A model generated the notes under the pieces. The model worked only from the letters and a program-made list of their open reading frames with translations. It did not search any database and had not been told where the DNA came from. A stretch of 64,000 nucleotides of DNA. It comes from Bacteroidota bacterium. Lineage in GTDB: Bacteria > Bacteroidota > Bacteroidia > Sphingobacteriales > Sphingobacteriaceae. Position numbers and translations under genes: made by a program. Numbering within the stretch: position 1 is the first letter of the stretch; each line of letters opens with the position of its first letter. Positions 8,038 to 64,000 of the stretch are shown one piece after another. The DNA lies in the NCBI GenBank assembly GCA_040387995.1, contig JAZKCT010000055.1, positions 5,372 to 69,371 on the forward strand. The letters are read 5' to 3'.

Positions 8038-9198
8038 ATGGATTGTAGCCACGTTTTTGAGTTTAAAGTTAATAGGTTAATTGTTGTTTTTACGCTTTTT
8101 TTAGCGTTTTTTTCTGCTGCACCTGCTGCTTTTGCTCAGGAAGACACAGTTAATTCAGTAGCGCAAGCGCATCTGGAGGATACTGCGCATGTTGCTGAAG
8201 GCGGACATGCTGAGCAAAGTAAAAAGTTTGATATTGGTAAGTTCGCTTTGCACCATATTGCTGATTCGCACAGCTGGCATGTGATTGGTGAGACTTATAT
8301 TAGTCTACCGGTGATTTTGTATACTTCTAATGGCTTTGTCACTTTTAGTTCTGGTGATTTTAATCACGATGACGATGCGAAAGTTGTTGTAGAAAGAAAA
8401 GGCCTTCGTTTTGTGAAGCTGCATGAGAAAATTTATTATGCTTCGTCTGCTGCAAATGAACATGGTTCTTTTGTTGATCTTGATGAGAAGCACCATGCTT
8501 CTAATTCACGTCCTCTGGATCTTTCCATTACGAAGAACGTTTGTACGCTTTTTCTGTCGATCATTATCATACTTGCTGTGTTTCTTAATGTGGCTAAGGG
8601 CTATAGGGTTCGTAAGGGTAAATCTCCTAAAGGTTTGCAGTCCTGGATGGAGCCGATCATTCTTTTTGTCCGTGATGATATTGCCAAGCCTAACTTGGGT
8701 CATAAGTATGAGCGTTTCATGCCTTATTTACTGACCGTGTTTTTCTTTATCTGGTTTAACAATATGCTTGGTTTGGTTCCTTTTCTTCCGGGAGGAGCGA
8801 ATTTGACCGGGAATATTGCAGTAACTTTAGTTTTGGCAGTTGCAACTTTCTGTCTGACAGTATTCAATGGGAACAAATACTACTGGAAGCATATTTTCAT
8901 GCCGGATGTGCCCTGGTGGATGTATATCGTGATGGTTCCGGTTGAGCTTTTCGGTATTTTTACCAAGCCGATCGCATTGATGATTCGTTTGTTTGCAAAC
9001 ATCACTGCCGGCCACATTTTGGTGCTGTCGCTGATCTGTCTGGTTTTCGTTTTCAATAGTTTGTGGATTGCTCCTGTTTCTGTTGCGTTTGCTGTGTTCA
9101 TCGGTGCAATTGAATTGCTGGTTGCTTTTATCCAGGCCTTTATATTTACGATTTTGTCTGCCTTGTTTATCGGTATGGCAATTGAGGAACACCATTAA
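8038..9198 (+). CDS. atpB: F0F1 ATP synthase subunit a (long Bacteroidota form)
   Basis: ALMIRLFANITAGH with the conserved Arg, ELLVAFIQAFIF; N-terminal soluble extension. Confidence 0.96.
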   Translation: MDCSHVFEFKVNRLIVVFTLFLAFFSAAPAAFAQEDTVNSVAQAHLEDTAHVAEGGHAEQSKKFDIGKFALHHIADSHSWHVIGETYISLPVILYTSNGFVTFSSGDFNHDDDAKVVVERKGLRFVKLHEKIYYASSAANEHGSFVDLDEKHHASNSRPLDLSITKNVCTLFLSIIIILAVFLNVAKGYRVRKGKSPKGLQSWMEPIILFVRDDIAKPNLGHKYERFMPYLLTVFFFIWFNNMLGLVPFLPGGANLTGNIAVTLVLAVATFCLTVFNGNKYYWKHIFMPDVPWWMYIVMVPVELFGIFTKPIALMIRLFANITAGHILVLSLICLVFVFNSLWIAPVSVAFAVFIGAIELLVAFIQAFIFTILSALFIGMAIEEHH

Positions 9199-9224
9199 TA
9201 AGAATTATTTTTTAACAACAATAA

Positions 9225-9449
<225 letters not shown>

Positions 9450-10053: not shown

Positions 10054-10602
10054 ATGTCAGAAAACAAAGCAGCATCAAGATACGCCAAGTCGCTAATTGA
10101 TCTTTCCGTTGAGCAGAATGCACTGGAAGAAATCAAGAATGATATGGTTCTTTTAGATCAGGTAATTGATGGCAATCCTGAATTGGAGGCGATCCTGAAA
10201 AATCCAATAGTTCCCCTGGACAAGAAAGCCGGAATATTGGAGCAGGTTTTTGGCGCTCACGTTCATGCCGTGACCAATGCTTTTTTAAAGTTAGTGGTCA
10301 AAAAAGGCCGTTCTGCAATTTTATATGGAACTGCTAAGGCATTCATTGCACAATACAATTTAAGTAAGGGTATTGTGACTGCTGAAGTAACTTCGGCGAT
10401 CGGATTAACGGATGCAAATAGAACCGAGATCGTGGCGATTGTGAAGAAGGAAGCTGGTGCTAAGGAAGTGGTGATCAATGAGAAAGTCAATGAGAAACTG
10501 ATTGGAGGTTTTATACTAAAAGTTGGTGACAGGCAGTTTGATGCCAGCATTCTTCATGGATTGAATAAATTGAAAAAAGAATTTGCTCAGGGTATCGTTT
10601 AG
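10054..10602 (+). CDS. atpH: F0F1 ATP synthase subunit delta
   Basis: ASRYAKSL start, LIGGFILKVGDRQFDAS C-terminus. Confidence 0.95.
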   Translation: MSENKAASRYAKSLIDLSVEQNALEEIKNDMVLLDQVIDGNPELEAILKNPIVPLDKKAGILEQVFGAHVHAVTNAFLKLVVKKGRSAILYGTAKAFIAQYNLSKGIVTAEVTSAIGLTDANRTEIVAIVKKEAGAKEVVINEKVNEKLIGGFILKVGDRQFDASILHGLNKLKKEFAQGIV

Positions 10603-10657
10603 TCCTGGGAAATAGAAGATAACATATACTGATTTATAAAAGAAATAATATAAAATT

Positions 10658-12232
10658 ATGGTAGAGGTAAGACCAGACGAAGTATCGGCAATTATCAGGC
10701 AACAATTGGCGGGCTTCAAATCAGAAGCAGAACTTGAGGAAGTTGGTACCGTATTGCAAGTGGGTGATGGTATTGCCCGTGTATATGGCTTAACTAAAGT
10801 TCAATCAGGTGAGTTAGTTGAGTTTGAAAACGGCTTGCAAGGAATTGTTTTGAACCTTGAGGAAGATAATGTTGGAGTGGTTCTTTTGGGCCCTTCAGAC
10901 AATATCAAAGAAGGTGATACGATCAAACGTACCAAGAAAATCGCCTCTATCAAAGTTGGAGAAGGTATGCTGGGCCGTGTTGTAAACACGCTGGGCGAGC
11001 CTATTGACGGTAAAGGTCCGATTCTGGGGCAAACTTACGAAATGCCGATCGAACGTAAAGCTCCCGGTGTAATTTATCGTCAGCCAGTAACTGAGCCTTT
11101 ACAAACTGGTATAAAAGCGATCGACGGTATGATTCCAATCGGACGTGGTCAGCGTGAATTGGTAATCGGTGACCGTCAGATTGGTAAAACTGCTGTTTGT
11201 ATCGATACCATTATCAACCAAAAAGAGTTTTATGAGGCTGGTAACCCGGTATTCTGTATCTATGTGGCTTGCGGACAAAAAGCGAGTACTGTAGCGAACA
11301 TCGTGCGTACACTGGAAGAAAATGGTGCAATGGCATATACTGTGGTTGTAGCTGCTTCTGCCGCTGAGCCTGCTCCATTACAGTTCTATGCACCTTTCTC
11401 TGGTGCAGCTATTGGTGAGTTTTTCCGCGATACGGGAAGGCCTGCATTGATCGTTTATGATGACTTGTCTAAACAGGCTGTAGCTTACCGTGAGGTTTCT
11501 TTACTATTGCGTCGCCCACCAGGTCGTGAGGCTTATCCAGGAGACGTGTTTTATCTGCACAGCCGTTTATTGGAGCGCGCAGCTAAAATCAATTCGAATG
11601 ATGAAATCGCTCAAGCGATGAACGATTTGCCTGAATCATTGAAAGGTATCGTAAAAGGTGGTGGTTCGTTAACAGCCCTTCCAATTATCGAAACTCAGGC
11701 AGGTGACGTTTCTGCTTATATTCCTACTAACGTAATTTCAATTACTGACGGACAGATCTTCCTGGAAAGTAACTTGTTCAACTCTGGTATTCGTCCAGCT
11801 ATTAACGTAGGTATTTCGGTATCACGTGTGGGTGGAAATGCGCAGATCAAATCAATGAAAAAAGTGGCTGGTACCTTGAAACTGGACCAGGCTCAATACC
11901 GCGAATTGGAGGCTTTCTCCAAATTCGGTTCGGATCTGGACGCAGCGACCAAATCTGTATTGGATAAGGGTGCACGTAACGTAGAGATCCTTAAGCAAGG
12001 CCAGTTCTCGCCAATGACAGTGGAGAAGCAAGTTGCGATCATTTATATTGGTACTAAGAACCTGATGCGTTCGGTTCCTGTAAATAAAGTAAAAGAGTTT
12101 GAAGCTGAGTATTTACAACAGCTTGAATTGCGTCATCCGGAAACTTTGAAAGCGCTTAAAGCTGGTAAGTTTGATGATCAAATTACAGGAGTATTGGAAA
12201 CTGTAGCTAAGGAGCTTTCAGGTAAATATTAA
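10658..12232 (+). CDS. atpA: F0F1 ATP synthase subunit alpha
   Basis: [18 protein letters not shown] Walker [27 protein letters not shown]. Confidence 0.99.
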
Positions 12233-12236
12233 TTAG

Positions 12237-13121
12237 ATGGCTAATTTAAAAGAAGTAAGAAACCGTATAGCGTCGGTACAATCTACGCAGCAGATCACCA
12301 AAGCCATGAAGATGGTCTCGGCCGCTAAGTTGAAACGTGCGACCAACGCTATTATACAATTACGTCCTTATGCTACAAAGTTGAAAGAAATCCTTGGAAA
12401 TCTTTCAGCAAGCCTTGAGGGATCTTCATCTCCTTTTATCCAGGAACGTGAGCCTAATAAGGTATTAATCGTAGCAGTTTCTTCTAATCGTGGTTTGGCC
12501 GGAGCATTCAATATGAATGTGATTAAGACTACGAATAACCTGATTGCCGGGAAATACAATGAGCAGTATAAGAACGGTAACGTAAGTATCTTAGCTATTG
12601 GTAAAAAGACTCAGGATTTTTACGAGAAGCGTGGCTATAAAGTAATTGGGAATAACAATGAAGTATATGCTGCACTGACTTTTGAGAATGTGACTAAGAT
12701 TACCGATGCAATTATGGCTGGTTTTGTAAAGGGAGATTTTGATAAGGTTGAATTGGTGTACAACAGGTTTAAAAATGCTGCTGTCCAGATTCTGACAACC
12801 GAGCAATTGCTTCCTCTGCCTAAAGCAGAAGCAGAGGCAAATGACAAGATTTCTTCCAATGTGGATTATATCCTCGAGCCGTCGCAAGAACAGATCGTTG
12901 AGCAGTTGATCCCTAAATCCATTAAAATCCAATTGTACAAAGCGGTGTTGGACTCTCATGCTTCTGAGCATGGGGCACGTATGACGTCCATGGACAAGGC
13001 GACCGAGAATGCGGGTGATTTGCTGAAAGCTTTGAAGCTTTCGTACAACCAGGCCCGTCAGGCTGCAATTACAACAGAGCTTACAGAAATCGTAAGTGGT
13101 GCTGCTGCATTGAACGGTTAG
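12237..13121 (+). CDS. atpG: F0F1 ATP synthase subunit gamma
   Basis: QITKAMKMVSAAKL, RGLAGAFN, SEHGARMTSMDKATENA, RQAAITTELTEIV. Confidence 0.98.
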   Translation: MANLKEVRNRIASVQSTQQITKAMKMVSAAKLKRATNAIIQLRPYATKLKEILGNLSASLEGSSSPFIQEREPNKVLIVAVSSNRGLAGAFNMNVIKTTNNLIAGKYNEQYKNGNVSILAIGKKTQDFYEKRGYKVIGNNNEVYAALTFENVTKITDAIMAGFVKGDFDKVELVYNRFKNAAVQILTTEQLLPLPKAEAEANDKISSNVDYILEPSQEQIVEQLIPKSIKIQLYKAVLDSHASEHGARMTSMDKATENAGDLLKALKLSYNQARQAAITTELTEIVSGAAALNG

Positions 13122-48387: not shown

Positions 48388-49581
48388 TTATGCCTGAAGT
48401 CCGGGTATTTCAACAACCTCGTCAACCTCAACACTATAGTCTACACCTGGAACTTCAAATCCGAACAGGTTAAAAAAGTCTGTTTTATAGCCTTCCAGAT
48501 CACCGATCTCCGGTAAGGTCTCTGTTGCAGCTTGTTGCCATAAGGCAAATACTTCTTCCTGAACATCTGGTCTCATTTCCCAATCGTCGATTCTGATCCT
48601 GCCTTTTTCATCGATACTTAATGCCGCTGAGGAATATAAATGCTCCTGGAAAAGCCTGCTGATTTGTTCAATACAACCCTCGTGGATGCCTTTGGCTTTC
48701 ATCACCTTATAGAGCAGGGAGATGTACAAAGGAATTACCGGAATTGCAGAGCTCGCTTGGGTAACAAGCGCTTTATTTACAGAGACGTAAGCTTCTCCGT
48801 TGATGTCTTTTAATTGGTCTGATATGGTAAATGCAGTCGCTTCAAGGTGGTCTTTCGCGCGTCCTATGGTGCCTTTACGGTACACGGGTTCGGTAAGCGC
48901 AGGGCCGATATAGGAATAGGCCACTGTTTTGACGCCCTGGGCAAGCAGCCCCTCTTTTTTTAAAGCATCGATCCACATTTCCCAGTCCTCACCGCCCATT
49001 ACAGCCACTGTATTGGAGACCTCGTCCTCATTCGCAGGTGAGATGGAAACAGTAGAAACGATTCCGGTATGGAAATCTACCGTTTTATCACTGAAGGTCT
49101 CTTCAATTGGTTTTAGAACAGAATTATGGGTTTCTCCGGTTGTGGGATGAACTCTTTTTGGAGAAGCCAGACTGTAAATTACGAGATCAATTTGTCCAAG
49201 GTCTGCTTTGATCAGTTCAATGGTTTGCTGTTTGATCTCGTTAGAGAAGGCATCGCCATTGATGCTTTTGGCATAAAGGCCAGCTTCATTGGCGAAAGCC
49301 TCAAAAGCTGCGGTATTGTACCAGCCTGCAGAAGCCGGCTTGCCGGGAGCAGGTGGTTTTTCAAAATAGACACCTATGGTGGCGGCCTCTGAGCCAAATG
49401 CGGCGGTGATTCTTGAGGCCAGGCCAAAGCCTGTCGAAGCACCTATGACCAGCACTTTTTTAGGGCCGTTAACCGTTCCTTTAGATTTTACGTAGTCAAT
49501 TTGTTTCAATACATTTTGTCTGCATCCTTCGGGATGCGCTGTAAGGCAAATAAATCCGCGTGTTCTTGGACTGATAATCAT
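48388..49581 (-). CDS. fabV: Enoyl-ACP reductase FabV (trans-2-enoyl-CoA reductase family)
   Basis: AHPEGC, KVLVIGASTGFGLASRI, INGDAFS, YSLASP, YSYIGP, GTIGRAKDHL, IRIDDWEM. Confidence 0.95.
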   Translation of the reverse strand: MIISPRTRGFICLTAHPEGCRQNVLKQIDYVKSKGTVNGPKKVLVIGASTGFGLASRITAAFGSEAATIGVYFEKPPAPGKPASAGWYNTAAFEAFANEAGLYAKSINGDAFSNEIKQQTIELIKADLGQIDLVIYSLASPKRVHPTTGETHNSVLKPIEETFSDKTVDFHTGIVSTVSISPANEDEVSNTVAVMGGEDWEMWIDALKKEGLLAQGVKTVAYSYIGPALTEPVYRKGTIGRAKDHLEATAFTISDQLKDINGEAYVSVNKALVTQASSAIPVIPLYISLLYKVMKAKGIHEGCIEQISRLFQEHLYSSAALSIDEKGRIRIDDWEMRPDVQEEVFALWQQAATETLPEIGDLEGYKTDFFNLFGFEVPGVDYSVEVDEVVEIPGLQA

Positions 49582-49624
49582 ATGTTGCTGCTATAATTTG
49601 TAAATGAGGTTAGATTAATTCCGA

Positions 49625-49632
49625 CAAAGCTA
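49625..49632 (-). promoter_or_regulatory. Bacteroidota -7 promoter element for fabV
   Basis: TAGCTTTG on the minus strand. Confidence 0.45.
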
Positions 49633-49645
49633 AAGTTTTTATTGA

Positions 49646-50209
49646 TCAAAGGAGTATGCAGCGCTCGCCTTCCAGAAGTATTTTGCATTGCTCGTCGTTT
49701 GTTGGGATACTGATTTCATCCAGTTCTTTTCTATGGTTTAGTTTGATCTCCTTGCGGCTTTTTGCCCGGAGAAACCTTCTGATATCATCACTGTTGGCCA
49801 ATACGAGTCCAGGCACCTGGGCTGGCTGGTTGTCTTCATCTTTGGCCACCATTGTAAAATAGCTGGTATTGGTATGTTTGACTTCGTTGGTCTTTACATT
49901 TTCAGAAACTACCCTGATGCCCACTACAATGGAGGTTTTGCCGACGTAGTTGACCGAAGCCATAAGTGACACCAAATCGCCAACCTCTATAGGCTGCAGG
50001 AAATTGACGGTGTCGATAGAAGCAGTGACACAGTAGTTTCCGGCATGTTTAGAAGCGCAGACATAGGCTACTTTATCCATCAGCGAAAGCAAAATTCCTC
50101 CGTGGATTTTCCCGCCGAAATTGGAATAGGAGGGGATCATTAACTCTGTTAAAACTGTTTTGGAAAAGCTGACTGGTTTATAAGTAATGTTTTGTGTTGG
50201 ATCGGACAT
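49646..50209 (-). CDS. Acyl-CoA thioesterase (hotdog fold)
   Basis: NFGGKIHGGILL.LMDKVAY.CA, VTASID.V.FL.PI.VG. Confidence 0.92.
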   Translation of the reverse strand: MSDPTQNITYKPVSFSKTVLTELMIPSYSNFGGKIHGGILLSLMDKVAYVCASKHAGNYCVTASIDTVNFLQPIEVGDLVSLMASVNYVGKTSIVVGIRVVSENVKTNEVKHTNTSYFTMVAKDEDNQPAQVPGLVLANSDDIRRFLRAKSRKEIKLNHRKELDEISIPTNDEQCKILLEGERCILL

Positions 50210-50343
50210 TGCAGGATTAAGTTGTCTGTTCAGTGTTACGCTAAAATAAGCAGGATAAACCGGATCGAGGGTAAAATTTAGAAATAATTAAAATTATGGG
50301 AGGTCTTGCCTTTTTGGAGATCAAAAGAAATTAGAGGGTCAAA

Positions 50344-50384
50344 AAAAATGGACAACTTCGGATTTATTGAAGTTGTCCATTTTT
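50344..50384. terminator. Strong bidirectional hairpin
   Basis: Perfect 16-bp inverted repeat AAAAATGGACAACTTC / GAAGTTGTCCATTTTT with a 9-nt loop. Confidence 0.75.
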
Positions 50385-50385
50385 G

Positions 50386-50506
50386 TGGTGGCTAAGATAC
50401 GGATTTCGAATCAATTCCATAATAATGTCCTCAAATTAGTGAATATGGACATAGATTGACCTAAAAATCAGGGTTTTATTTTTGATGGTCGGAGTTAGTT
50501 CGAACC
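50386..50506 (-). other. Two degenerate tRNA-3'-end-like / att-scar sequences
   Basis: Minus strand reads GATTCGAAATCCGTATCTTAGCCACCA and GGTTCGAACTAACTCCGACCA (T-loop-like TTCGAA, ending ACCA); no full cloverleaf. Confidence 0.35.
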
Positions 50507-50587
50507 AACTTTTTTAAAGATTTTAGTATTTCTGATTTTCGTAACATATAACTTAGCTTAATTTTTTATGTAGCAAGCGATAAACAT

Positions 50588-51172
50588 TTAAAAAAGGAAG
50601 GTTAAAATAACGGTGGCAACTGTTAAATATCCCAGACAAGCACGCAGGTGTTTCAATGCAAAACTAAGCTGGTTCTTTACCGTCTGTTCAGAAAGGTGCA
50701 GCAGCGCGGCGATTTCTGGGATACTCCTATTTTCTTCCCGGCTTAGCTGGTAAATTTCCCTTATCCTTGGGCTGAGCTGATCCAGGGCCAGACGGATCTG
50801 CTCTTTTAATTCTTTGGCGGCAAGTTGCTGTTCGATCTCCGAGCCTGGACTGGTCTGCAAAGCGATCACCATTTCCATATGAGCTTCCCTGGTAATGTTT
50901 TTCCGGATTTTATCGATGATCTGATAACGGACAAGGGTAAATAAATAAGCTTCCAGGTTTCGCTCCACCATTATAGCGTTTCTCTGCGCCCATAATTTAA
51001 CAAATACATCGTGGATAATGTCCCTGGCATCTTCCAGATCATACAGCTTGGAACTGGCAAATCCGGTTAATTTGTCCGCATACCTGGAATAAATCTCGGT
51101 AAAAGCAGATTCATCATCTTCTTTAAGAAGATCAGACAGTTTAAGGTCACTTAACAATTGATAGTCGGACAT
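50588..51172 (-). CDS. ECF RNA polymerase sigma-70 factor
   Basis: AFTEIYSRY, DIIHDVFVKLW region 2, LSPRIREIYQLSREE..SIPEIA...TVKNQL region 4. Confidence 0.93.
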   Translation of the reverse strand: MSDYQLLSDLKLSDLLKEDDESAFTEIYSRYADKLTGFASSKLYDLEDARDIIHDVFVKLWAQRNAIMVERNLEAYLFTLVRYQIIDKIRKNITREAHMEMVIALQTSPGSEIEQQLAAKELKEQIRLALDQLSPRIREIYQLSREENRSIPEIAALLHLSEQTVKNQLSFALKHLRACLGYLTVATVILTFLF

Positions 51173-51317
51173 GTCTGTTTAGCTTTTATCGCAAGTTCGA
51201 GCACTTACCCCGGCAAGCTTGACAAAATTATGCAGCTTTACAACAACCACATCCAACAATAAATAACTCCTCTGTACTGATCTCCTGACTATTTTCATTT
51301 AAGTTTTTAATAGTTAA

Positions 51318-54059
51318 TTATAAGCGACGTCTTGCATCGTTTCCGGCAGCATCCACATTCTCTTTGTTATTCTGCTTTTTCCCAACGGAGAAGTTGTAGT
51401 TCAGTGACAACCCGATATAACGTGCATAGTCTACTTTATTTCGCACTACGTTCCGGCTAAACTCAGGCGTATTGATCTCATACCTGGGTTTATACAAATG
51501 TAAAGGATCCCAGATCTCCGCCGTACAGTTAAGTTTGTCTTTAAAAAAGCTCTTTTTTATCAGCACATTGACCGACTGCTCCCCAAACTGGTCGTACAAA
51601 TTACGGAAGCTTGGGCTGTTATAGTATCCGGAAATTTCTAAGAAATATTTCCCGGGCAGGTTAAATTTGCTGGATGCCCAAACGTTTTGCGTAAACTTTT
51701 CGCGATGAAATCCAAGATTTCCATCAACCTCAAGTGTCCGGTATCTAAAGGTTGCGTTGGTATTGAACTCCCACCAGCTGGTCAGTTTAATGGGAATATA
51801 AATCGAGGTGAAAACATTATTATTATCACTCAGGTTCTCATCTTTTGAAATGATGAGCTCGCCCTGGTTGGTTACATTTTCAGCGATCCCATTGCTGGTA
51901 TTCTGGTAGCCTGCGGTAAAGGAATACTTATTCTTTAGCAAATATTCCAGCTGGAGGTTATTACTGTAATAGGGAACCAGCTCCGGGTTTCCCAATCGGA
52001 TGGTATTTAAACTGGTGTAGGAAACAAAGGGGTTTAACTGACGAAATCCCGGACGCTCTATTCTTCTGTTATAAGAGAGGGTTAAGGAATGATTTTCTCC
52101 AAGTTTCCGGTTAAAATAGGCAGAAGGAAACAGGTTCCACTGGTTGCGTGCTATTGTGGCACCGGTTATTGGGGAGTGACCGTTGTAATTGGTTTGCTCA
52201 GTTCTTAGCCCAATTTTGTACCCCCATTCTTTGTAGGTTTTAGCAAGTGTCCCGTAAAATGCCAGAATGTGTTCGTTGTACAGGAACTTGTCAGATTGCA
52301 GCGGGTCTATTGGTGCCTGCTCATTGAGTCCAAGTCGGTAATCCAGGCTATAATCGGTAGCTGAACCTGTGTACTTAGCGCCCGCCCCCAAAACCATGGA
52401 ATTGGAAAGATGTTTTTCGAGGTCTGCATTGGCGACGTGAATGGTGGATCTGCCCCTGGTGTAATTAAACAGGCTGTCGCGGGAACGAGATTCCCCACCA
52501 CCTGCGTTTAAAAACCGCGTTTCCAGCGCAGAAGGATCGTTTAAACCATAATAGATAAAGCTATAACCTACATCCAGTCTGCTGCCCATCGTGTCCAGTT
52601 TATTCCGGTAAAAAGCATTAGCCATATGATTGGCGTATTTAAAGGTGGTGGTTCTTTGAGAAATCAGCGAAGAATCGGCCACCTCGGGGTCGGAAGAATA
52701 ATACCTTGCATCGGTAGTCAGGTTATTGCTGATGTCCCCGGGGTTAGCGAACATATTATAGCTCAGACCAATGGTTTGCCTCAGATCCAGTTTATAGTCC
52801 GCGCTCGCATTGTAAGCTACAGAATTGTAACGCTCCAGGTACTTTTCGTCCTGGCGGGTAGACAGTCCGGTGCCGTAGAAGGTTTGCTCGATATGATCCT
52901 CGTAAAATGCGGGCCAGCGCCTATAGTTGAAGCCGCCCTGAAGGTTGAATTTCCCTGCGCGATAGTTTAAAAATGCGGAGCCTATGACATTGCTTTCCGA
53001 GCTGCGAAAGAACCCGGCATTGACATTCCCGGAGAGTCCATATTTAAATTCGGACTTTAAAACGATGTTAACCACAACGCCGGCATTTTGCGCATCACTT
53101 TCCGCTCCCGGCACAATCCTAAGCTCGTAAGACTTAATGGATTCAGAAGGGATAGACCTCAAATAACCCAGCAACTGGTCTCCCGGAAGCAGGATCCTCC
53201 TGTTGTCTACATAAACCGTAATGCCTTCATCACCGCGAAAGCGCAGGTCCCTTCCGTTAAAAGTGACCCCGGGAATCACATTGAAAAGCTGGAGCGCATT
53301 TTGTCCTTTTTCATAAATGCCTCCTTCAATGTTCAGGATCAGTTTATCAATTGACCGGCTGATCAATGGCCGGCTGGCTTTGATGGACACATCTTTTAAT
53401 TGGATGGCCGAAGCCATCAGCAAGATGTCAGCAAGCTGCACCTCCTTTGCTGTTCCCACAGTGATCTTTTGCACAAGGCTGTCGGTTTCCGGGGAAACGA
53501 CTTTAAGCAGGTAATCGCCCTGTTCAAAAACTTTCAGGCTAAACCTGCCGCCGGTATCAGCCAGGGCGGTAAAGATGACCTTTGGATTGGCCTGCTTAAG
53601 GATGCTGATGGTTGCAAATTCCGCTGGTTTGCCCTCAGGGCCTAAAATCCTTCCTTTAATCGTGAATCCGTCCTGCTGATCTCTTTTCTGCAAAAGGATG
53701 CTGTTATCGATCTGCCGGAAAGAAAAGTCGGAATTTCGGAGCAACTCATACAGGGTTGTTTCAACAGAACGGGTGCTGTAGTCTAAATGAAGTCCGGAAA
53801 TTTCCCTGATCTCAGCTTTTCGGAAATAAAAGCGAAAAGGGGTTTGCGCTTCGATTTTGCGAAGCGCTACCAGCAGGCTTTCATCTTCCAGTCGGATAGT
53901 GACACTTTGCTCAGCCATGCTTTGGCCCTTGACATCGGTGGCCAGGGTCATTTGGGCGGAAGCAGAAATGATCAGCAATATAGCAGTACTTATGCGCATC
54001 AGGTGAATGATAAATTTTTCAATAGTTAACCGATCCCACAATATTGTAGAATTTTTCAT
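51318..54059 (-). CDS. TonB-dependent-type outer-membrane receptor with N-terminal STN signalling and carboxypeptidase-regulatory-like domains
   Basis: Long signal region, STN-like IEAQTPFRFYF, D.TGGRFSL, plug IDKLILNIE, beta-barrel with NWNLFPSAY and YNRRIERP; no susD follows. Confidence 0.8.
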   Translation of the reverse strand: MKNSTILWDRLTIEKFIIHLMRISTAILLIISASAQMTLATDVKGQSMAEQSVTIRLEDESLLVALRKIEAQTPFRFYFRKAEIREISGLHLDYSTRSVETTLYELLRNSDFSFRQIDNSILLQKRDQQDGFTIKGRILGPEGKPAEFATISILKQANPKVIFTALADTGGRFSLKVFEQGDYLLKVVSPETDSLVQKITVGTAKEVQLADILLMASAIQLKDVSIKASRPLISRSIDKLILNIEGGIYEKGQNALQLFNVIPGVTFNGRDLRFRGDEGITVYVDNRRILLPGDQLLGYLRSIPSESIKSYELRIVPGAESDAQNAGVVVNIVLKSEFKYGLSGNVNAGFFRSSESNVIGSAFLNYRAGKFNLQGGFNYRRWPAFYEDHIEQTFYGTGLSTRQDEKYLERYNSVAYNASADYKLDLRQTIGLSYNMFANPGDISNNLTTDARYYSSDPEVADSSLISQRTTTFKYANHMANAFYRNKLDTMGSRLDVGYSFIYYGLNDPSALETRFLNAGGGESRSRDSLFNYTRGRSTIHVANADLEKHLSNSMVLGAGAKYTGSATDYSLDYRLGLNEQAPIDPLQSDKFLYNEHILAFYGTLAKTYKEWGYKIGLRTEQTNYNGHSPITGATIARNQWNLFPSAYFNRKLGENHSLTLSYNRRIERPGFRQLNPFVSYTSLNTIRLGNPELVPYYSNNLQLEYLLKNKYSFTAGYQNTSNGIAENVTNQGELIISKDENLSDNNNVFTSIYIPIKLTSWWEFNTNATFRYRTLEVDGNLGFHREKFTQNVWASSKFNLPGKYFLEISGYYNSPSFRNLYDQFGEQSVNVLIKKSFFKDKLNCTAEIWDPLHLYKPRYEINTPEFSRNVVRNKVDYARYIGLSLNYNFSVGKKQNNKENVDAAGNDARRRL

Positions 54060-56258: not shown

Positions 56259-57320
56259 TCAGTTAAATTCTATTGCGCCGTATCTTGAAAAATCAGCGCA
56301 GAGGTCAAAGGCCTTTTGCCCTTTTTGCAGACCTGTCCCGTACATAATGGATTTGAACTTGCTTTCGGTATCCCTATAAGTTTTGAAGTTTTGATAGTAT
56401 CCGGTAATGGCATTGTAAGCGCCAAATAAAGTCCCCTTTGTGGTTTCTTCCTGCTGGCTTGGGCTAGTCATTGCGTATTCAAATACGTTGTCAATGGTAT
56501 TTTTATACAGGCTGGAAAGGTTGTCTAAATTGCCATTTTGAAGCGCTTCAGTCGTTTCTCTGTTGGGTGCCATGGCAATTTGAATGAGTTTTTTAACTTC
56601 ACTATCTGAAATTCTGATCCTAGACCAGTGGTTAAATACTTCTTCCAGTTCACCAGCTAACTGGTTGCTTAAGCCCAATAGCCGGTGCGCTACTTTTAGC
56701 CTGTCCTGTACGTTGGCGGTATGTTTTAAGCGGATGCAATTGGTTTTGTTGCGCATAGCGGCATTTAAAGTATTGTTACAAACAATGCGGGTGGGGGTAA
56801 AAGCGGCGGTAATGCTTCCATAACCATCGTGCGAAGTGGTCAGAAAAAGGTATTTTTCAATCAAATCGTTACGGCCGACACGGATATAATCGGGCAATTT
56901 TGCAGTGATAAAGATCCGCTCACCTTTACCTAATGCGCCCGCTGTCTCATACTGGATGCCGCCACTTCCCCCGACAATGCTGTCAAAAAATTCAAAGGCC
57001 TGCACGTTTTGCACAATCTCATAATCCCTGCCCACTACGCCCAAAACATCCTCTGTATCGGTGCGTACAGTAGCGTAATAATCAGGAACTTTGAGTTCAG
57101 CAATGACTAAATCCCGGTCGGGGTCGCCTACATTGTTTTCATTGTCGTAGGTAAACAGCTTGCGCTTTTCTACCGTGTAATCCAGTCCGGCATAGCGCAG
57201 GGCTTCACTACTGGTCGGGTAATTTTCTATAATTGTGCCCAGCCCGTGCCATGCTTTTTCTTTTACGCTCATAAAGGCGTGTTTCCCTGTAGCCGTGTTA
57301 TAATTTAAGTTGTGTGCCAT
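56259..57320 (-). CDS. DUF932-family phage/plasmid-like protein
   Basis: MAHNLN, AWHGLG, VVGRDYEIVQN..AFEFFD, YETAGAL..GERIFITAKLP, TSHDGYG, RIVCNNTL, TLFGAYNAITGY. Confidence 0.88.
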   Translation of the reverse strand: MAHNLNYNTATGKHAFMSVKEKAWHGLGTIIENYPTSSEALRYAGLDYTVEKRKLFTYDNENNVGDPDRDLVIAELKVPDYYATVRTDTEDVLGVVGRDYEIVQNVQAFEFFDSIVGGSGGIQYETAGALGKGERIFITAKLPDYIRVGRNDLIEKYLFLTTSHDGYGSITAAFTPTRIVCNNTLNAAMRNKTNCIRLKHTANVQDRLKVAHRLLGLSNQLAGELEEVFNHWSRIRISDSEVKKLIQIAMAPNRETTEALQNGNLDNLSSLYKNTIDNVFEYAMTSPSQQEETTKGTLFGAYNAITGYYQNFKTYRDTESKFKSIMYGTGLQKGQKAFDLCADFSRYGAIEFN

Positions 57321-58983: not shown

Positions 58984-59628
58984 TCAATTGCTTTTAAACA
59001 AAAGCGGATCATCATCACCTGGTTTTCTCACGATGTAAACCGTCTTAAATTCCGGTGGGGGACAGGAATACAGCCTGCGTGCCAGTTCCACTGCTGCCAG
59101 TACGGAACTGGCTTTAGCTACACCCATGCCTTTGAAACTACACAACGAAGAATAGCTACTGCTTTTCAGCATATGGATCTTTCCGCCCATGCCTTCCAGT
59201 ATGCGGCCGGCCAGCTCAATAGCCGATTCGCCAGGCGAACCCGAGCCCAGCAAAATAGCCAGCAGTTCCGCATTATTTATTTTATTTGCACCATGCGCAA
59301 ACAGCTTTTCCCTTGGACGTGTATCCTCAGGCATCGCTTTAATCCCTTTTGAAACCCTCGATTCTTCTGCCACCTCTCTAAGCGTCTGGTATCCGCGCCC
59401 CTGGTAAGCAGCCGACTGGAATAGCGAAGCGAAAGCGCTGATAAAATCCTCCAGGTGATTTTCAAAAACGACGAACGACCACCTTTTATAGCTGCCGTCG
59501 GGCTGCTGTTCACTGCGGGTTAACTGGATATAGCGGCTGTCATTCTCCGCGCGTTTAAAATCTAAAAAGTAATGTCTTTTGTCAGTGGCCGAAAAGGATT
59601 CCGAGGCCAGTATTTCTTTCTTTTTCAT
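58984..59628 (-). CDS. PUR-alpha-like (DUF3276) domain fused to the RadC N-terminal HhH region, lacking the JAB domain
   Basis: RHYFLDFKRAEND.RYIQLT.S PUR-like N-half; RPREKL...G...+NNAELLAILLGSG...SAIELA..IL and GMGVAKA..+LAAVELARR. Confidence 0.8.
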   Translation of the reverse strand: MKKKEILASESFSATDKRHYFLDFKRAENDSRYIQLTRSEQQPDGSYKRWSFVVFENHLEDFISAFASLFQSAAYQGRGYQTLREVAEESRVSKGIKAMPEDTRPREKLFAHGANKINNAELLAILLGSGSPGESAIELAGRILEGMGGKIHMLKSSSYSSLCSFKGMGVAKASSVLAAVELARRLYSCPPPEFKTVYIVRKPGDDDPLLFKSN

Positions 59629-60277: not shown

Positions 60278-60661
60278 TTAAACACGTTCAGCAACAGCGA
60301 ACGCTAAAGTTAAAATTTCAGAATGTGTGATAGTAACATGCCATTTGTTGATACCGAATTTGTCACTGAGGGTTTTGACTTTTCCTGAAAGTTTTACCTC
60401 CGGCTGGCCGTTTGGAGAGCGAATGATATCAATGTCTTTAAGGGAAATGTCATCCTGCATTCCCGTTCCAAGGCACTTTAATATCGCCTCTTTTGCAGCG
60501 AAACGCCCCGCAATGAAATTGTCTTTAGAAGCGTGTGCATGAAATAGCGCTAATTCACTTTCTGACAGGATCCTGCTAGGAAAATTACCCTGTGTGTCCC
60601 AGGCAAGTAATTTGCTGTTTTGGTCGTGTTGAACAATATCACTTCCGATTCCAATGATCAT
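60278..60661 (-). CDS. acpS: AcpS-type 4'-phosphopantetheinyl transferase (holo-ACP synthase)
   Basis: MIIGIGSDIV, AGRFAAKEAILKCLGTG, NGQPEVKL, VTITHS motifs. Confidence 0.88.
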   Translation of the reverse strand: MIIGIGSDIVQHDQNSKLLAWDTQGNFPSRILSESELALFHAHASKDNFIAGRFAAKEAILKCLGTGMQDDISLKDIDIIRSPNGQPEVKLSGKVKTLSDKFGINKWHVTITHSEILTLAFAVAERV

Positions 60662-60672
60662 GGGACAGGCAA

Positions 60673-61263
60673 TTAATTTATTGCCAGGTAATCGATTTCT
60701 TTTGTTAAAAGATTAAAGTTGACACGACCGCCTCCATTATTTATTAACAACCGGAACATATCATAAGCTTTTAAAATAGCCTTTTCCCATTCTTTGGAAG
60801 TACGTGCGTTGACTTCAAAATTCTCAGTCATTTCCTTAACGATTCGTAGCGTCGTACGTGATACTTTAGAAGCGCCCTCAAAATACTTTTTACGCTTTGC
60901 CTCATTAAAAATGACCATAGATAGCGCTTCTTCTGTTATAGTTGCCCTTGCTCCATCTTCAATTTCATCTAGTAAGACATCGCTTTTGCGCTTACGCTTC
61001 ATCATGGCACGGGTACAAGGTGACCAGCCAAGCAGGGTAGCAAAGGTGTAGTGAAAAATATCGTGATAACGGTAGAAATCATTGCTGTAAGCATTATCAT
61101 TGATGACATCCCCAATCTGCTCATCGTCATTGAGTACAACACGCACTTCTTCCCTGATCCCATTTCCTACCTCATAAAAAGAGACAGAAAAGGACCGCGG
61201 GATTTGTTCCTCAGGCTTACAGCCTGCATCAAAATAACTATTTTGCTTTTTTGATCGTGTCAT
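60673..61263 (-). CDS. Stand-alone MazG C-terminal (MazG_C) domain protein
   Basis: EQIPRSF, IGD.INDNAY..D.YRYHDIFH...A.LLGWSP..RAMMKRKRKS...DEIEDGARA.ITEEALS; no N-terminal MazG helical domain. Confidence 0.75.
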   Translation of the reverse strand: MTRSKKQNSYFDAGCKPEEQIPRSFSVSFYEVGNGIREEVRVVLNDDEQIGDVINDNAYSNDFYRYHDIFHYTFATLLGWSPCTRAMMKRKRKSDVLLDEIEDGARATITEEALSMVIFNEAKRKKYFEGASKVSRTTLRIVKEMTENFEVNARTSKEWEKAILKAYDMFRLLINNGGGRVNFNLLTKEIDYLAIN

Positions 61264-62092
61264 TTTTTATTTCGTTAGCTAATATACTATCTATTTTTTG
61301 AACCAGAACCTTATCAGTTAATGTTTTACGTATTTCGGTGATAACTTCCTCTGTTGATTCTTTAGATTTTCTGCCATCCGCGAATCCCCGGTCATAGGCT
61401 ACCCAATCCCAACCTAACTTTAAAGCTATCGCAATAAAAAGGCCAATGATAATTTTATATAACCAGTCGTTGCGATCTTTTTTCTCGTCTGATTTTACAA
61501 TCTTTTCAGAAAGGGATTGTTCAACGGCTACAATTTTATCTAACAGAGCTTTTGGCGAAGTCAGTTCTCCCCGTTTTAAAAACTCAATATATTTTGGCGG
61601 AATATGATCGAGTTTTTTAAAATGATCGTTGTTGTCATTGTAAGCTTCATCTTCGCTTAGTTCATGCTTCATCTCCGCAAACCAAATCGGGAAATAAGGT
61701 TCGCCAAAATTAAGTACAATTGTAGAAGGCCCTGCATTGTATACAGAAAATAGCAAATGGTCATTGAAACCAGGGTCAACATGAAAACCAGATACGTTAA
61801 TGAGACCCTTTAGCTTTTCTCCGGCTTTGATAGAAATAAAGGCAATTTTGTCTTTTGGAATACTGACCTTTTCTTTTGTTAGCAACAAGGCAAACTGTCC
61901 TGGATTGATATCAATCTGCCGGTCGTCTTTATCCAATGTTTCTACCTTTCCTGTCTTAGAGTCAGTGAGGTAAACTTCTTTGCCAAGGGATAATTCATAC
62001 GCGCCGTTTTTTACCCTTCGGGCATCAAATGGATCTATCACGTTTGATGTTGTTTGTAAGACCAGTAATTCTTTTACACCTAAAAATGCCAT
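61238..62092 (-). CDS. dCTP deaminase/dUTPase-fold protein with substituted deaminase residues and a C-terminal TM helix
   Basis: AYELSLG, INPGQFALLLT.E.V, GLINVSGFHVDPGF, VYNAG; hydrophobic WLYKIIIGLFIAIALKLGWDWV near the C-terminus. Confidence 0.8.
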   Translation of the reverse strand: MAFLGVKELLVLQTTSNVIDPFDARRVKNGAYELSLGKEVYLTDSKTGKVETLDKDDRQIDINPGQFALLLTKEKVSIPKDKIAFISIKAGEKLKGLINVSGFHVDPGFNDHLLFSVYNAGPSTIVLNFGEPYFPIWFAEMKHELSEDEAYNDNNDHFKKLDHIPPKYIEFLKRGELTSPKALLDKIVAVEQSLSEKIVKSDEKKDRNDWLYKIIIGLFIAIALKLGWDWVAYDRGFADGRKSKESTEEVITEIRKTLTDKVLVQKIDSILANEIKNDTIKKAK

Positions 62093-62133: not shown

Positions 62134-63222
62134 TCAGTCCAATATTTCTATCAACCGCGGAGCCTGCTGTATCCTGTGGTTAATTCCCCATTTTGGCGGG
62201 AACCAGTAATCAATTTTTGAGGCGTTGCTCCGAAATTTCTGCTTAATGTTTACCCGTTCACTTGCTCCTTTGATGTCAGGATGTTTCACTCTGGCATATT
62301 TGTCCACTTCACAAAATAAATTCTGACAATCTATCAACTGCAGCTTTCTAGTCCAAAGATCTTTAAACTCTAAACCCAGACGTTCGAACTCCCGTTCCTG
62401 GCTATCGGTCATCAGTTTAATAATCTCCACATTATTCAGTCCCCCAGTATTGGAAAAACATTTACTGATTCCTCCTTTTGCGCCAGGACCTGGCACAACA
62501 AAAGATGATTCAGAAAAATCAGTTAGGGTAGAATAATTGATGTCAATTACCAACTGATAAGCCAGGAAGTCTCCAAGTCCAGGAAACCTTTTGATCAATT
62601 CAAACGCATGTTGCATATTCTTGGCAGTAACCAGATGCTCATGCGTATCCTCTGCAATCATGAACTCGATTAACTTAAGGTGGTTGGAGTGCTTTCTGGT
62701 ATAACCAAAATAAGAGCCTCCTGACGGCATGATGTAAGCAGCCGAATAGATTCGCTCGCCGGCCAACATGGCTATCGTTAAGATCTTATCATAAGCTTCA
62801 AAATTATAGTCTTCGAAAGTTATCGTTCCAAATTCTGCAAGAAGTAACTCCCAGGTATCTATTTTGTTGAATAGCTTAAATACTAAAATGCGGAAAAGTA
62901 TTTCCTTAGGTGTATTTGGAAACTGATCATTGTAGATCACGTTTTTAATGAGGTATTGACTGACCCTATCCGCTGCCCGATACGCATTTGTAAACTTGTA
63001 TTTATTTAAAATATCGTCATCTGACCAGGGTGCACTCAGACCGTTAAACCTGTTAAAAAATGCTTCCTGGCGCAGTGCAGCAAACTTCCAATAAGAGATG
63101 TATACGTCCGTAACAATAGCAGGAGCAAGAGAAACATGAATATTTATCGTATGCCCGGTAGTGTTTGCTGCCGGGGCTGTAGTTGATTTACTTTCTTTGT
63201 TTTGTTTTGTCATGACCTGCAA
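62134..63222 (-). CDS. 5-hydroxymethyl-dU DNA kinase-like protein (aGPT-Pplase clade 1 / helical domain family)
   Basis: YWKFAALRQ..F, W.DD.IL..YKFTNAYRAADRVSQY, FKLFNK..TW, YSAAY, FPGLGDFLAYQ..ID.NY, GPGA.GG, LIDCQNLFCEVDKYAR. Confidence 0.8.
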   Translation of the reverse strand: MQVMTKQNKESKSTTAPAANTTGHTINIHVSLAPAIVTDVYISYWKFAALRQEAFFNRFNGLSAPWSDDDILNKYKFTNAYRAADRVSQYLIKNVIYNDQFPNTPKEILFRILVFKLFNKIDTWELLLAEFGTITFEDYNFEAYDKILTIAMLAGERIYSAAYIMPSGGSYFGYTRKHSNHLKLIEFMIAEDTHEHLVTAKNMQHAFELIKRFPGLGDFLAYQLVIDINYSTLTDFSESSFVVPGPGAKGGISKCFSNTGGLNNVEIIKLMTDSQEREFERLGLEFKDLWTRKLQLIDCQNLFCEVDKYARVKHPDIKGASERVNIKQKFRSNASKIDYWFPPKWGINHRIQQAPRLIEILD

Positions 63223-63231
63223 AGATAACCG

Positions 63232-63978
63232 CTATAGAATAGAACTTAAATTAATTCTGTCCAATAAATCCTTGGCAGATGTCTTTCCCAGATTGTCCAG
63301 TTGTTCCACCCCGATAAAGCAATTCAACCGCTCGAATTCAAGACCAGTTTCCTGGGCGATAAATTTTCCTAGATTGATCAGTCCCAGCCAATTTCCGTAG
63401 GCCCGGCGGTAAAAAAACTGAATCGCATAAAAACTATTCAGCACCAGGCCACCTGTTTCTGATTTGTAAAATGTAACATGCTGAAGGCAGGGGAATCTCT
63501 GGTATGGGCCGTTGGTATGGTCCTGTTCAGGATCAAAGATTGATGCCTGGAGCTTGGATCTCCGTTTATTAGTGGTGCTTAAAATAGAGGTAATGATCAT
63601 CTCCAGCTGGTTGATCGGCTGTCCAGCATTTTGATAAGCGATCATTCTTTGGAAATAAGTACCCTTGTGATTACTGGAATCTATGCGCCTGATACGTTGA
63701 TAATTTCGCATATATTGGTCGTACAGTTCATGGCGATCCCATCCGCAAAACTGATAAAGGGATTGCGGGAAAATTGTTTCTGAAACAGTTTGTATCGATG
63801 GTAAATCGTGACTGGCCAGATCAGCATCCAACAATTCCCGAACATCTGAAGATTCCACAAAGTCAGTAAGGGTCAATAATAGTGGACTAATTTCTTTTCC
63901 AGAGTTACTCACCAGCGTATTCAGTACTTCAGTCCAGGCTTCTGATAAATTGGTGTTTTTAATAAATAATGGTTCCAT
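63232..63978 (-). CDS. Divergent thymidylate synthase-fold protein (dUMP hydroxymethylase-like)
   Basis: TVSETIFP, GTYFQRM, ASIFDP, FPCL catalytic-Cys motif, AYGNW equivalent of the TS PFN motif. Confidence 0.75.
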   Translation of the reverse strand: MEPLFIKNTNLSEAWTEVLNTLVSNSGKEISPLLLTLTDFVESSDVRELLDADLASHDLPSIQTVSETIFPQSLYQFCGWDRHELYDQYMRNYQRIRRIDSSNHKGTYFQRMIAYQNAGQPINQLEMIITSILSTTNKRRSKLQASIFDPEQDHTNGPYQRFPCLQHVTFYKSETGGLVLNSFYAIQFFYRRAYGNWLGLINLGKFIAQETGLEFERLNCFIGVEQLDNLGKTSAKDLLDRINLSSIL

Positions 63979-64000
63979 AAATTGCTAATCTAGATCGTTT

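Follow-up and report, generated by a model that had tools for sequence, protein, structure and literature searches.

Thymidylate synthase (TS) has one of the best-studied enzyme folds, a drug target that until recently was thought to be bound to folate, and a gene that keeps the catalytic cysteine of this fold and lacks the folate-binding elements raises the question of what its product does instead. Here, we describe such a gene (hereafter TS-like) at positions 63232..63978 on the minus strand of a 64,000-nucleotide stretch of DNA (the window) from a Bacteroidota bacterium of the family Sphingobacteriaceae (GenBank assembly GCA_040387995.1, contig JAZKCT010000055.1, positions 5,372 to 69,371), where it forms an intact open reading frame of 248 amino acids with an ATG start. 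We see close to an even chance that TS-like is a catalytically competent, folate-independent enzyme of the TS superfamily, which would modify pyrimidines at the core of a cassette of defense type that is mobile, inducible and CapH/CapP-controlled, with the holo form of a carrier protein from the same cassette as its partner on the C5 side of the base.

Structure and sequence comparison

An AlphaFold2 (AF2) model of TS-like computed from 30 orthologs (predicted local distance difference test, pLDDT, 84.5; predicted template modeling score, pTM, 0.87) matched MilA and dozens of thymidylate synthases in Foldseek with a probability of 1.00. The top match in VIA-align was AfhB (PDB 9iqu; Z 15.3, root-mean-square deviation 3.4 over 202 residues), with MilA at Z 14.5 and the E. 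coli TS, ThyA, at Z ~13 (root-mean-square deviation 3.5, ~198 residues), model residues 12-246 lying on ThyA residues 1-225. Structure prediction, which an initial annotation of this DNA had named as a check on its proposal of a TS-fold enzyme, thus agrees with that proposal at the level of the fold (Z 13-15).

Comparison of a profile of 56 diverse family members with one of 17 canonical ThyA proteins by hhalign gave a probability of 83% (E 1e-6), and the single TS-like sequence against E. coli ThyA only 2.6%. Pfam returned no family at E<=1, so that the gathering threshold of PF00303 is not reached. The NCBIfam model of archaeal TS, TIGR03283, scored 51.8 bits (E 7.2e-14) against a cut-off of 174.55, about equal to its score of 55.5 bits for the ordinary ThyA of the same genome, which lies on another contig (C32:43644-44432; PF00303 E 1.4e-131) and presumably fills the housekeeping role. 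TS matches among the PHROGs were weak, and no TS came up in the PDB when it was searched with the TS-like sequence (phmmer) or the family profile. Judged from the model, the TS fold of this protein is no chance resemblance.

Active-site residues and conservation

The catalytic-cysteine motif of ThyA, P145-C146-H147, corresponds by hhalign and codon translation to P163-C164-L165 in TS-like (63484..63492, minus strand, as for all residues of this gene), and the general base Y94 to Y108, so that both catalytic positions are retained while H147 has become L165. The asparagine that specifies uracil in ThyA by reading its O4/N3, N177, is retained as the last residue of Y194-G195-N196 (63391..63399), placed by the AF2 model, spacing and codon translation. 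Also kept in the hhalign map are D110-Q111 (as N123-Q124) and R126-R127 (as R139-R140; 63559..63564), an arginine pair whose phosphate contacts are given across the ThyA dimer.

The remaining contacts to nucleotide and folate are largely replaced. A185-I186-Q187-F188 (63415..63426, codon translation) stands in place of R166-S167-C168-D169, and Q226-L227-D228 (63295..63303, hhalign and codon translation) in place of H207-L208-Y209, of which H207 and Y209 contact the 3'-OH; Q226 and D228 vary across the family. On the phosphate side, R21 has become P32, and on the folate side E58 has become P71 and W80/W83 have become Y93/I96, both of which are variable. ThyA L143 corresponds to R161 (Gly in 111/143 cluster representatives), a mapping that is approximate since it falls in a loop with a 3-residue insertion. 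The TS-like model stops at about residue 225 of the 264 in ThyA, and the last ~38 residues are gone. None of the elements that bind or activate folate (E58, W80, W83, D169 and the C-terminal segment) is thus found in TS-like, and of the phosphate cage for deoxyuridine monophosphate (dUMP), formed by R21, R166, S167 and R126'/R127', only the R126/R127 pair is kept.

The initial annotation had read four motif changes from a hand alignment, namely PCH to PCL with the cysteine kept, PFN to YGN with Asn177 kept, R166-S167-x-D169 to A-I-Q-F and H207-x-Y209 to Q-L-D, and the exact codons give each of them, with both the cysteine and the asparagine present in 143/143 cluster representatives. Its statement that the folate-binding motifs are gone is borne out by the missing equivalents of E58, W80/W83 and D169 and the missing C-terminal ~38 residues. 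That phosphate-binding motifs are lacking was right for the R21, R166 and S167 equivalents and wrong for the R126/R127 pair; as read from the alignments, the cage is lost by half, not wholly. The basic residues that had been overlooked are the R139/R140 pair, the invariant R111 and the invariant K/R192.

Residue equivalences between positions 182 and 199 depend on the register chosen. A gapped register given by hhalign (seven residues in, seven out, with R192 as R166 and N177 deleted) was rejected because it would break a strand that is continuous in the AF2 model (178-189) and shorten the helix at 191-211. The AF2 elements of TS-like fit, at an ungapped offset of 19, strand iv of ThyA, taken to span residues 158-169, and its helix J, taken to span 173-192. 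The ungapped register is also preferred because distant members that have the arginine carry it at position 185, 11 residues before the asparagine, just as R166 precedes N177; Arg185 is found in four distant plasmid-borne variants. Under the adopted register, A185 equals R166, I186 equals S167, F188 equals D169, N196 equals N177, Q226 equals H207 and D228 equals Y209, and the register of the initial annotation is thus the better supported of the two.

The TS-like family comprises 934 clusters (50% identity) at E<=1e-3, or 590 at E<=1e-10, and is found in at least five phyla. Among 143 cluster representatives, Cys164, Asn196, Tyr108, R111, Q124, D153, P163 and G199 are invariant, residue 192 is K or R throughout, and F70 (142/143), P71 (141/143) and G195 (142/143) are nearly so. 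R139 is present in 134/143 and R140 in 83/143, and position 185 is A in 91, P in 31, G in 9 and T in 6. The median isoelectric point (pI) of the family is 9.1, versus 6.5 for canonical ThyA, and that of the window's copy is 5.6. Because Cys, Asn, Tyr and further residues are invariant in all representatives, the active site is, on alignment evidence, a maintained one of its own design and not that of a decaying TS. The initial annotation had suggested a covalent adduct at C6 of uracil; given the invariance of Cys164, Asn196 and Tyr108, TS-like could plausibly attack a uracil-type base at C6, and the new chemistry that the annotation expected is a hypothesis.

Carrier protein and predicted complex

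The cassette opens with a gene for a 97-amino-acid carrier protein (L002 7166-7459, minus strand), which lies beyond the window on a locus, L002, that reaches past the window end (position x of L002 corresponds to x+58000 of the window). Its AF2 model (pLDDT 89.6) has a helix II that begins at residue 43, and the serine at this position, Ser43, is invariant, with the classical DSL motif in distant orthologs. All top Foldseek matches are acyl or peptidyl carrier proteins, with a best probability of 0.99, yet E no better than 0.06, and a Streptomyces ortholog is named 'acyl carrier protein' by NCBI. The fold of an acyl carrier protein, a conserved serine at helix II and a phosphopantetheinyl transferase in the same operon, as expected of a cognate carrier, were therefore all found.

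Prediction of a complex between TS-like and the carrier scored 0.73 versus 0.51 for the best control, with the runs agreeing in 100% of contacts and a pLDDT of at least 85 for the partner. The mark applied to this score is reached by 58/80 solved complexes versus 2/110 mismatched pairs. In the predicted interface, carrier residues 42-45, 47-48, 50-51 and 63-66 meet TS-like residues 58-99 (63682..63807), a stretch equivalent to ThyA ~45-86 that contains the family motif TVSETIFPxSLY and, within it, T64...F70-P71...L74, the most conserved N-terminal motif of the family. Carrier residues 42-45, which include Ser43, contact TS-like residues 71, 73, 74, 77, 89 and 92. By the hhalign map, the docking stretch includes ThyA H51, S54, E58, I79 and W83, which we take to line the pterin and p-aminobenzoate-glutamate side of the cleft. 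Since the predicted interface lies on the folate-side wall, the phosphopantetheine arm of the carrier would enter where folate enters ThyA. The model thus supports carrier binding to TS-like, and the 'different C5 donor' that the initial annotation had left general now has a concrete candidate in the cassette's carrier protein, for which docking at the folate side is predicted.

Gene cassette, variants and distribution

TS-like is the fourth gene of an eight-gene operon on the minus strand, in the order carrier, helix-turn-helix (HTH) protein, M78 peptidase, TS-like, HMUDK_hel, Dcd-like protein, MazG_C and AcpS, with intergenic gaps of -26 to +41 nucleotides. The second and third genes encode a CapH-like XRE-type HTH protein (L002 6850-7185, beyond the window; PF01381, PADLOC capH 1.3e-17) and a CapP/ImmA-IrrE-type M78 peptidase (L002 5985-6848, its 3' end at window 63985..64000; PF06114, PADLOC capP 9.3e-16). 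The operon therefore holds both the XRE-type HTH protein and the M78 metallopeptidase of a CapH/CapP-regulated operon, and CapH/CapP is a switch of many immune operons that is activated by DNA damage or single-stranded DNA (bioRxiv 10.1101/2022.04.27.489752).

Beginning 9 nucleotides downstream of TS-like, the fifth gene (62134..63222; PF18723 E 5.7e-106) encodes HMUDK_hel, a basic, helical, DNA-glycosylase-like protein of the aGPT-Pplase clade-1 type. It is followed by a protein with the dCTP deaminase/dUTPase fold (Dcd-like; 61238..62092; PF22769 E 1.1e-11, TIGR02274 E 1.6e-16), by a stand-alone MazG_C (60673..61263; PF18722 E 1.9e-65) whose gene overlaps that of the Dcd-like protein by 26 nucleotides, and by an AcpS-type phosphopantetheinyl transferase as the last gene (60278..60661; PF01648 E 2.2e-17). 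The C-terminus of the Dcd-like protein is a hydrophobic helix (WLYKIIIGLFIAIALKLGWDWV) that probably anchors it in the membrane, an uncommon feature in that enzyme family. Divergent to the operon, ~1.6 kb past the window end, is a gene for an ABC/OLD-type ATPase of 623 amino acids (OLD/AriA-like; L002 7642-9513, plus strand), for which PADLOC gives ATPase-Toprim_I-B (2e-24), AriAB (9e-22), AbiLi and PtuA and which is a probable second defense gene beside the cassette.

In 41 TS-like loci of other genomes, the surrounding genes were HMUDK_hel (41), M78 (40), AcpS (39), HTH (37), MazG_C (36), carrier (36) and Dcd (30), and truncated contigs explain 4/5 of the loci without a carrier and 2/2 of those without AcpS. 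The cassette of Flavobacteriia comes as a pair of operons that converge, one being carrier-HTH-M78-TS-like-AcpS and the other Dcd-MazG_C-HMUDK_hel, which argues that TS-like travels with the carrier and AcpS. MazG replaces Dcd in some cassettes. In plasmid variants, a papain-like C1 peptidase gene overlaps the start of TS-like (L054 6307-7020 and 7689-8390; L070 5382-5990), and in one of these, on a Sulfitobacter plasmid, a uracil-DNA glycosylase gene substitutes for HMUDK_hel.

Three natural fusions were found, TS-like::HMUDK_hel (P0213), TS-like::MazG::MazG_C and HMUDK_hel::MazG::MazG_C, on plus strands in Verrucomicrobiota and a metagenome contig (L050 9938-11623, L051 10858-12840, L010 5225-7183). 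They came from the exhaustive search and the loci, and a word-index search for longer, fused forms yielded none. Two cassettes contain in addition an ordinary TS, detectable by Pfam and of the type found in DS-4, a defense system of E. coli compared below, and in one of them, from Bacteroidota (L078), there is also a thymidylate-kinase-like kinase (8710-9324, plus strand). In this variant the second TS has 343 amino acids (10317-11348, plus strand), a gene for an EEP-family nuclease or phosphatase lies convergent just downstream (11400-12455, minus strand), and the cassette also holds the TS-like gene of divergent sequence, together with a carrier (5806-6084) that has the classical DSL motif. 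As both kinds of TS occur in the same cassette, TS-like is not redundant with an ordinary TS.

HMUDK_hel, the constant neighbor of TS-like, occurs in 5/401 Bacteroidota genomes sampled. Relatives of TS-like are carried by 24 plasmids, 14 of them conjugative, of Cyanobacteria, Alpha- and Betaproteobacteria and Actinomycetota. No relative was detected in 50,697 phage genomes (tblastn, E<=0.01), and none was confirmed among IMG/VR viral contigs with patterns that reach the close clade only. An integrative conjugative element carries the cassette as cargo at the present locus. Homologs of TraM, TraJ and TraG of the CTnDOT/Bacteroides conjugative-transposon type are encoded at L002 10846-18873 (minus strand). 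On the other side of the cassette, a DUF932 protein (window 56259-57320, minus strand) and a protein with UPF0758_N (RadC-like N-terminal) and DUF3276 domains (58984-59628, minus strand) are typical conjugative-element cargo. Further genes at window 48388-54059 (minus strand), encoding a FabV-type enoyl reductase, a 4HBT thioesterase, an ECF sigma factor with FecR and an outer-membrane beta-barrel protein, look ordinary chromosomal, and the edge of the element may lie there.

Proposed function and alternatives

From what we observe, namely the fold, which residues are retained or lost, a ThyA encoded elsewhere, the mobile cassette, the fusions and the passing complex prediction, we infer catalysis, a substrate, a role for the carrier thiol and a defense function as follows. 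Once DNA is damaged or an infection sets in, removal of the HTH repressor by the M78 peptidase would allow the operon to be expressed. The Dcd-like enzyme, or MazG in other cassettes, would convert dCTP/dUTP-type triphosphates to a uracil mononucleotide, and AcpS would convert the carrier to its holo form. TS-like would bind the uracil-type base through Asn196, Cys164 would attack C6 in a Michael addition, and Tyr108 would act as the base at C5. The partner at C5 would be the phosphopantetheine arm of the carrier entering the former folate channel, and not methylene-tetrahydrofolate; since TS-like has none of E58, W80, W83, D169 and the closing C-terminus, a folate co-substrate is unlikely. 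Either a uracil nucleotide modified at C5 or an intermediate tethered to the carrier would be the product and would pass to MazG_C and HMUDK_hel, which would act on nucleotides or DNA and so harm the invading replicon.

A bolder version of this proposal, which we hold to be possible if rather unlikely, is that the folate channel is reused by a carrier-borne thiol with an anti-phage output. The thiol could be a one-carbon shuttle of the S-hydroxymethyl or thionium kind, or a nucleophile that traps a C5 exocyclic methylene, which would leave the uracil nucleotide or DNA base thio-modified or tethered to the carrier. We know of no described role for carrier proteins in nucleotide or DNA modification. 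If the proposal is true, carrier-protein chemistry enters this field, and a large clade without a folate pocket (934 representative clusters) extends the chemistry of the TS fold. The clade also marks a widespread, mobile cassette, presumably switched by DNA damage and probably a new anti-phage system. With C164, N196 and carrier S43 known as the residues to mutate, the cassette hypothesis is directly testable.

Several points weigh against the proposal of a carrier-assisted enzyme. The complex prediction passes narrowly (+0.22, with +0.20 required), an unrelated 101-residue control scored 0.51 on the same TS-like surface, and the mapping of the interface to the folate channel depends on the 83% hhalign match together with the folate contacts of ThyA that we presumed above. 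AcpS was not seen in the C1-peptidase plasmid variants, and some cassettes have the carrier without AcpS. Given the canonical-type TS in two cassettes, the first C5 modification may not be the task of TS-like, and one would not expect an enzyme of plain deoxynucleoside monophosphates to have lost the equivalents of R21, R166, S167, H207 and Y209. PADLOC gives no match for the four enzymes of the cassette, and defense has been validated for the distantly related DS-4 only.

The same cassette and the same cysteine could act on uracil or 5-hydroxymethyluracil flipped from DNA, together with HMUDK_hel or, in variants, uracil-DNA glycosylase. We judge this unlikely, with evidence that pulls both ways: lost contacts to the 5'-phosphate (R21, R166, S167) and the 3'-OH (H207, Y209), the TS-like::HMUDK_hel fusion and the glycosylase in HMUDK_hel's place on the Sulfitobacter plasmid all favor DNA, as do the higher median pI of the family relative to ThyA and the basic HMUDK_hel, and proteins of the aGPT-Pplase type act on DNA bases (PMC8989533). 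The window's copy is acidic, however, counterparts of R126/R127 are still present and distant members retain that of R166; a mononucleotide is favored by the TS-like::MazG::MazG_C fusion and by a nucleoside triphosphate pyrophosphatase or deaminase being constantly present, and the MazG fusions point to it at least as strongly as the HMUDK_hel and glycosylase links point to a polynucleotide, in which the initial annotation had suggested that the base might lie. To our knowledge, no TS-fold enzyme acts on a polymer substrate. A minimal one-carbon enzyme of a more conventional kind, a dUMP hydroxymethylase or methylase using free formaldehyde or a pterin or folate bound or delivered in a different way, with the carrier serving another step and its docking an artefact, is likewise improbable. 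The control score just mentioned would suit it, as would the best sequence-model match being to a short archaeal TS (TIGR03283, E 7e-14), and the Gly that most members have at the L143 position would open C5 to water as in hydroxymethylases (PMC13326640). Among the structure-atlas neighbors of TS-like there are also TS cores joined to a separate domain that binds pterin (PF14251, 94% of one cluster), from which it follows that short TS cores can take one-carbon units from a separate module; yet none of the cassettes examined encodes a partner that binds pterin. E58 has become the virtually invariant Pro71 and D169 is replaced by hydrophobic residues, and both are, as far as we know, needed in all characterized folate-dependent thymidylate synthases and hydroxymethylases. 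Also contrary to such an enzyme are the co-occurrence of a canonical-type TS in two cassettes and the absence of relatives from the phage genomes searched, where dUMP hydroxymethylases abound.

It is very unlikely that TS-like is a non-catalytic binder of a uracil-type nucleotide, either a sensor or a scaffold for HMUDK_hel and MazG. The many canonical catalytic and binding residues that are lost would be in keeping with this, and the fusions could mean scaffolding alone; set against it, Cys164, Tyr108, Asn196, R111 and D153, invariant across the representatives and phyla, are what one would expect of a functional active site. That TS-like serves the organism as its thymidylate synthase, or duplicates that enzyme as a spare, has next to no probability in our view, even though its orthologs carry the label 'thymidylate synthase' in several databases. 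The initial annotation had already concluded that it is not a thymidylate synthase, and this is upheld by the missing PF00303 match, the TIGR03283 score below cut-off, the lost folate elements and half of the dUMP contacts, the canonical ThyA encoded elsewhere, and a location in a mobile, regulated cassette whose sporadic occurrence is reflected in the rarity of HMUDK_hel among Bacteroidota. The carrier-assisted, folate-independent enzyme thus remains our preferred reading of TS-like.

Comparison with known systems

Literature searches found no paper on the TS-like clade or on a carrier-linked TS, with a mention in Aravind-group papers of 2013/2015 being possible, and nothing relevant on a combination of carrier protein, TS and ImmA/CapP. 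Among characterized proteins, ThyA (PF00303) has in common with TS-like the fold over ThyA 1-225, the P-C motif, Y94, R126/R127, the D/N-Q motif of helix H and N177. It differs in R21, E58, W80, W83, L143, H147, R166, S167, D169, H207 and Y209, all replaced in TS-like, and in the C-terminal ~38 residues, which close over folate in ThyA and are absent from TS-like. Beyond ThyA, TS-like has an extra 11-residue strand at the N-terminus and invariants of its own, W15, F70-P71, R111, D153 and K/R192. Hydroxymethylases (MilA, acting on CMP, and the phage enzymes for dCMP or dUMP) share the TS fold and a residue at the L143 position that is not bulky and hydrophobic, and they are non-methylating enzymes that feed base-modification pathways beside a dCTPase or dUTPase and a kinase. 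They keep the contacts to folate and mononucleotide and have Asp or Glu at L143, whereas the TS-like family has Gly or Arg there, and neither the acidic residue nor the intact contacts are found in TS-like.

As for whole gene sets, DS-4 ('NTTI') of E. coli consists of a TS, a deoxynucleoside monophosphate kinase, HMUDK_hel, TIR and Nmad2, and protects against phage in experiments (DeWeirdt, Mahoney and Laub, Science 2026, PMC13092281). It resembles the present cassette as a mobile defense operon in which a TS-family protein stands beside HMUDK_hel and, in DS-4, a protein of the nucleotide-kinase type. However, its TS has 361 amino acids, is detected by PF00303 and keeps the R-S-x-D motif, and TS-like belongs to a different clade. 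DS-4 lacks the carrier, AcpS, Dcd, MazG_C and the CapH/CapP pair and has TIR and Nmad2, neither of which is among the Pfam matches of the operon, and HMUDK_hel is the sole shared member. A set of MazG-C, a dUTPase and an aGPT-Pplase has been predicted, without validation, to be defensive (DefensePredictor Fig. 6F/S12C, PMC13092281). This triad equals the second half of the present cassette and, as described, is without TS-like, carrier and AcpS. Nucleotide-centric conflict systems akin to the triad of MazG_C, dUTPase-fold protein and aGPT-Pplase are said to have been treated by Burroughs et al. in 2015.

The closest structural likeness is to the flavin-dependent 5-hydroxy-dCMP synthases, AfhB of phage HY126 (PDB 9iqu/9iqc) and gp48 of RB69, with Z of 15.3 and 14.9 and a similarly short chain. 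Cys146 and the dCMP contacts are kept in these enzymes, and their signatures are N177D and D169N (PMC13326640). TS-like has F188 and N196 at these two positions, so that the likeness is at the level of the fold only, and unlike for AfhB and RB69 gp48 there is no evidence of a flavin. As enzymes in which the TS fold has exchanged folate for another cofactor, they nevertheless provide a precedent for the exchange proposed here (PMC13326640).

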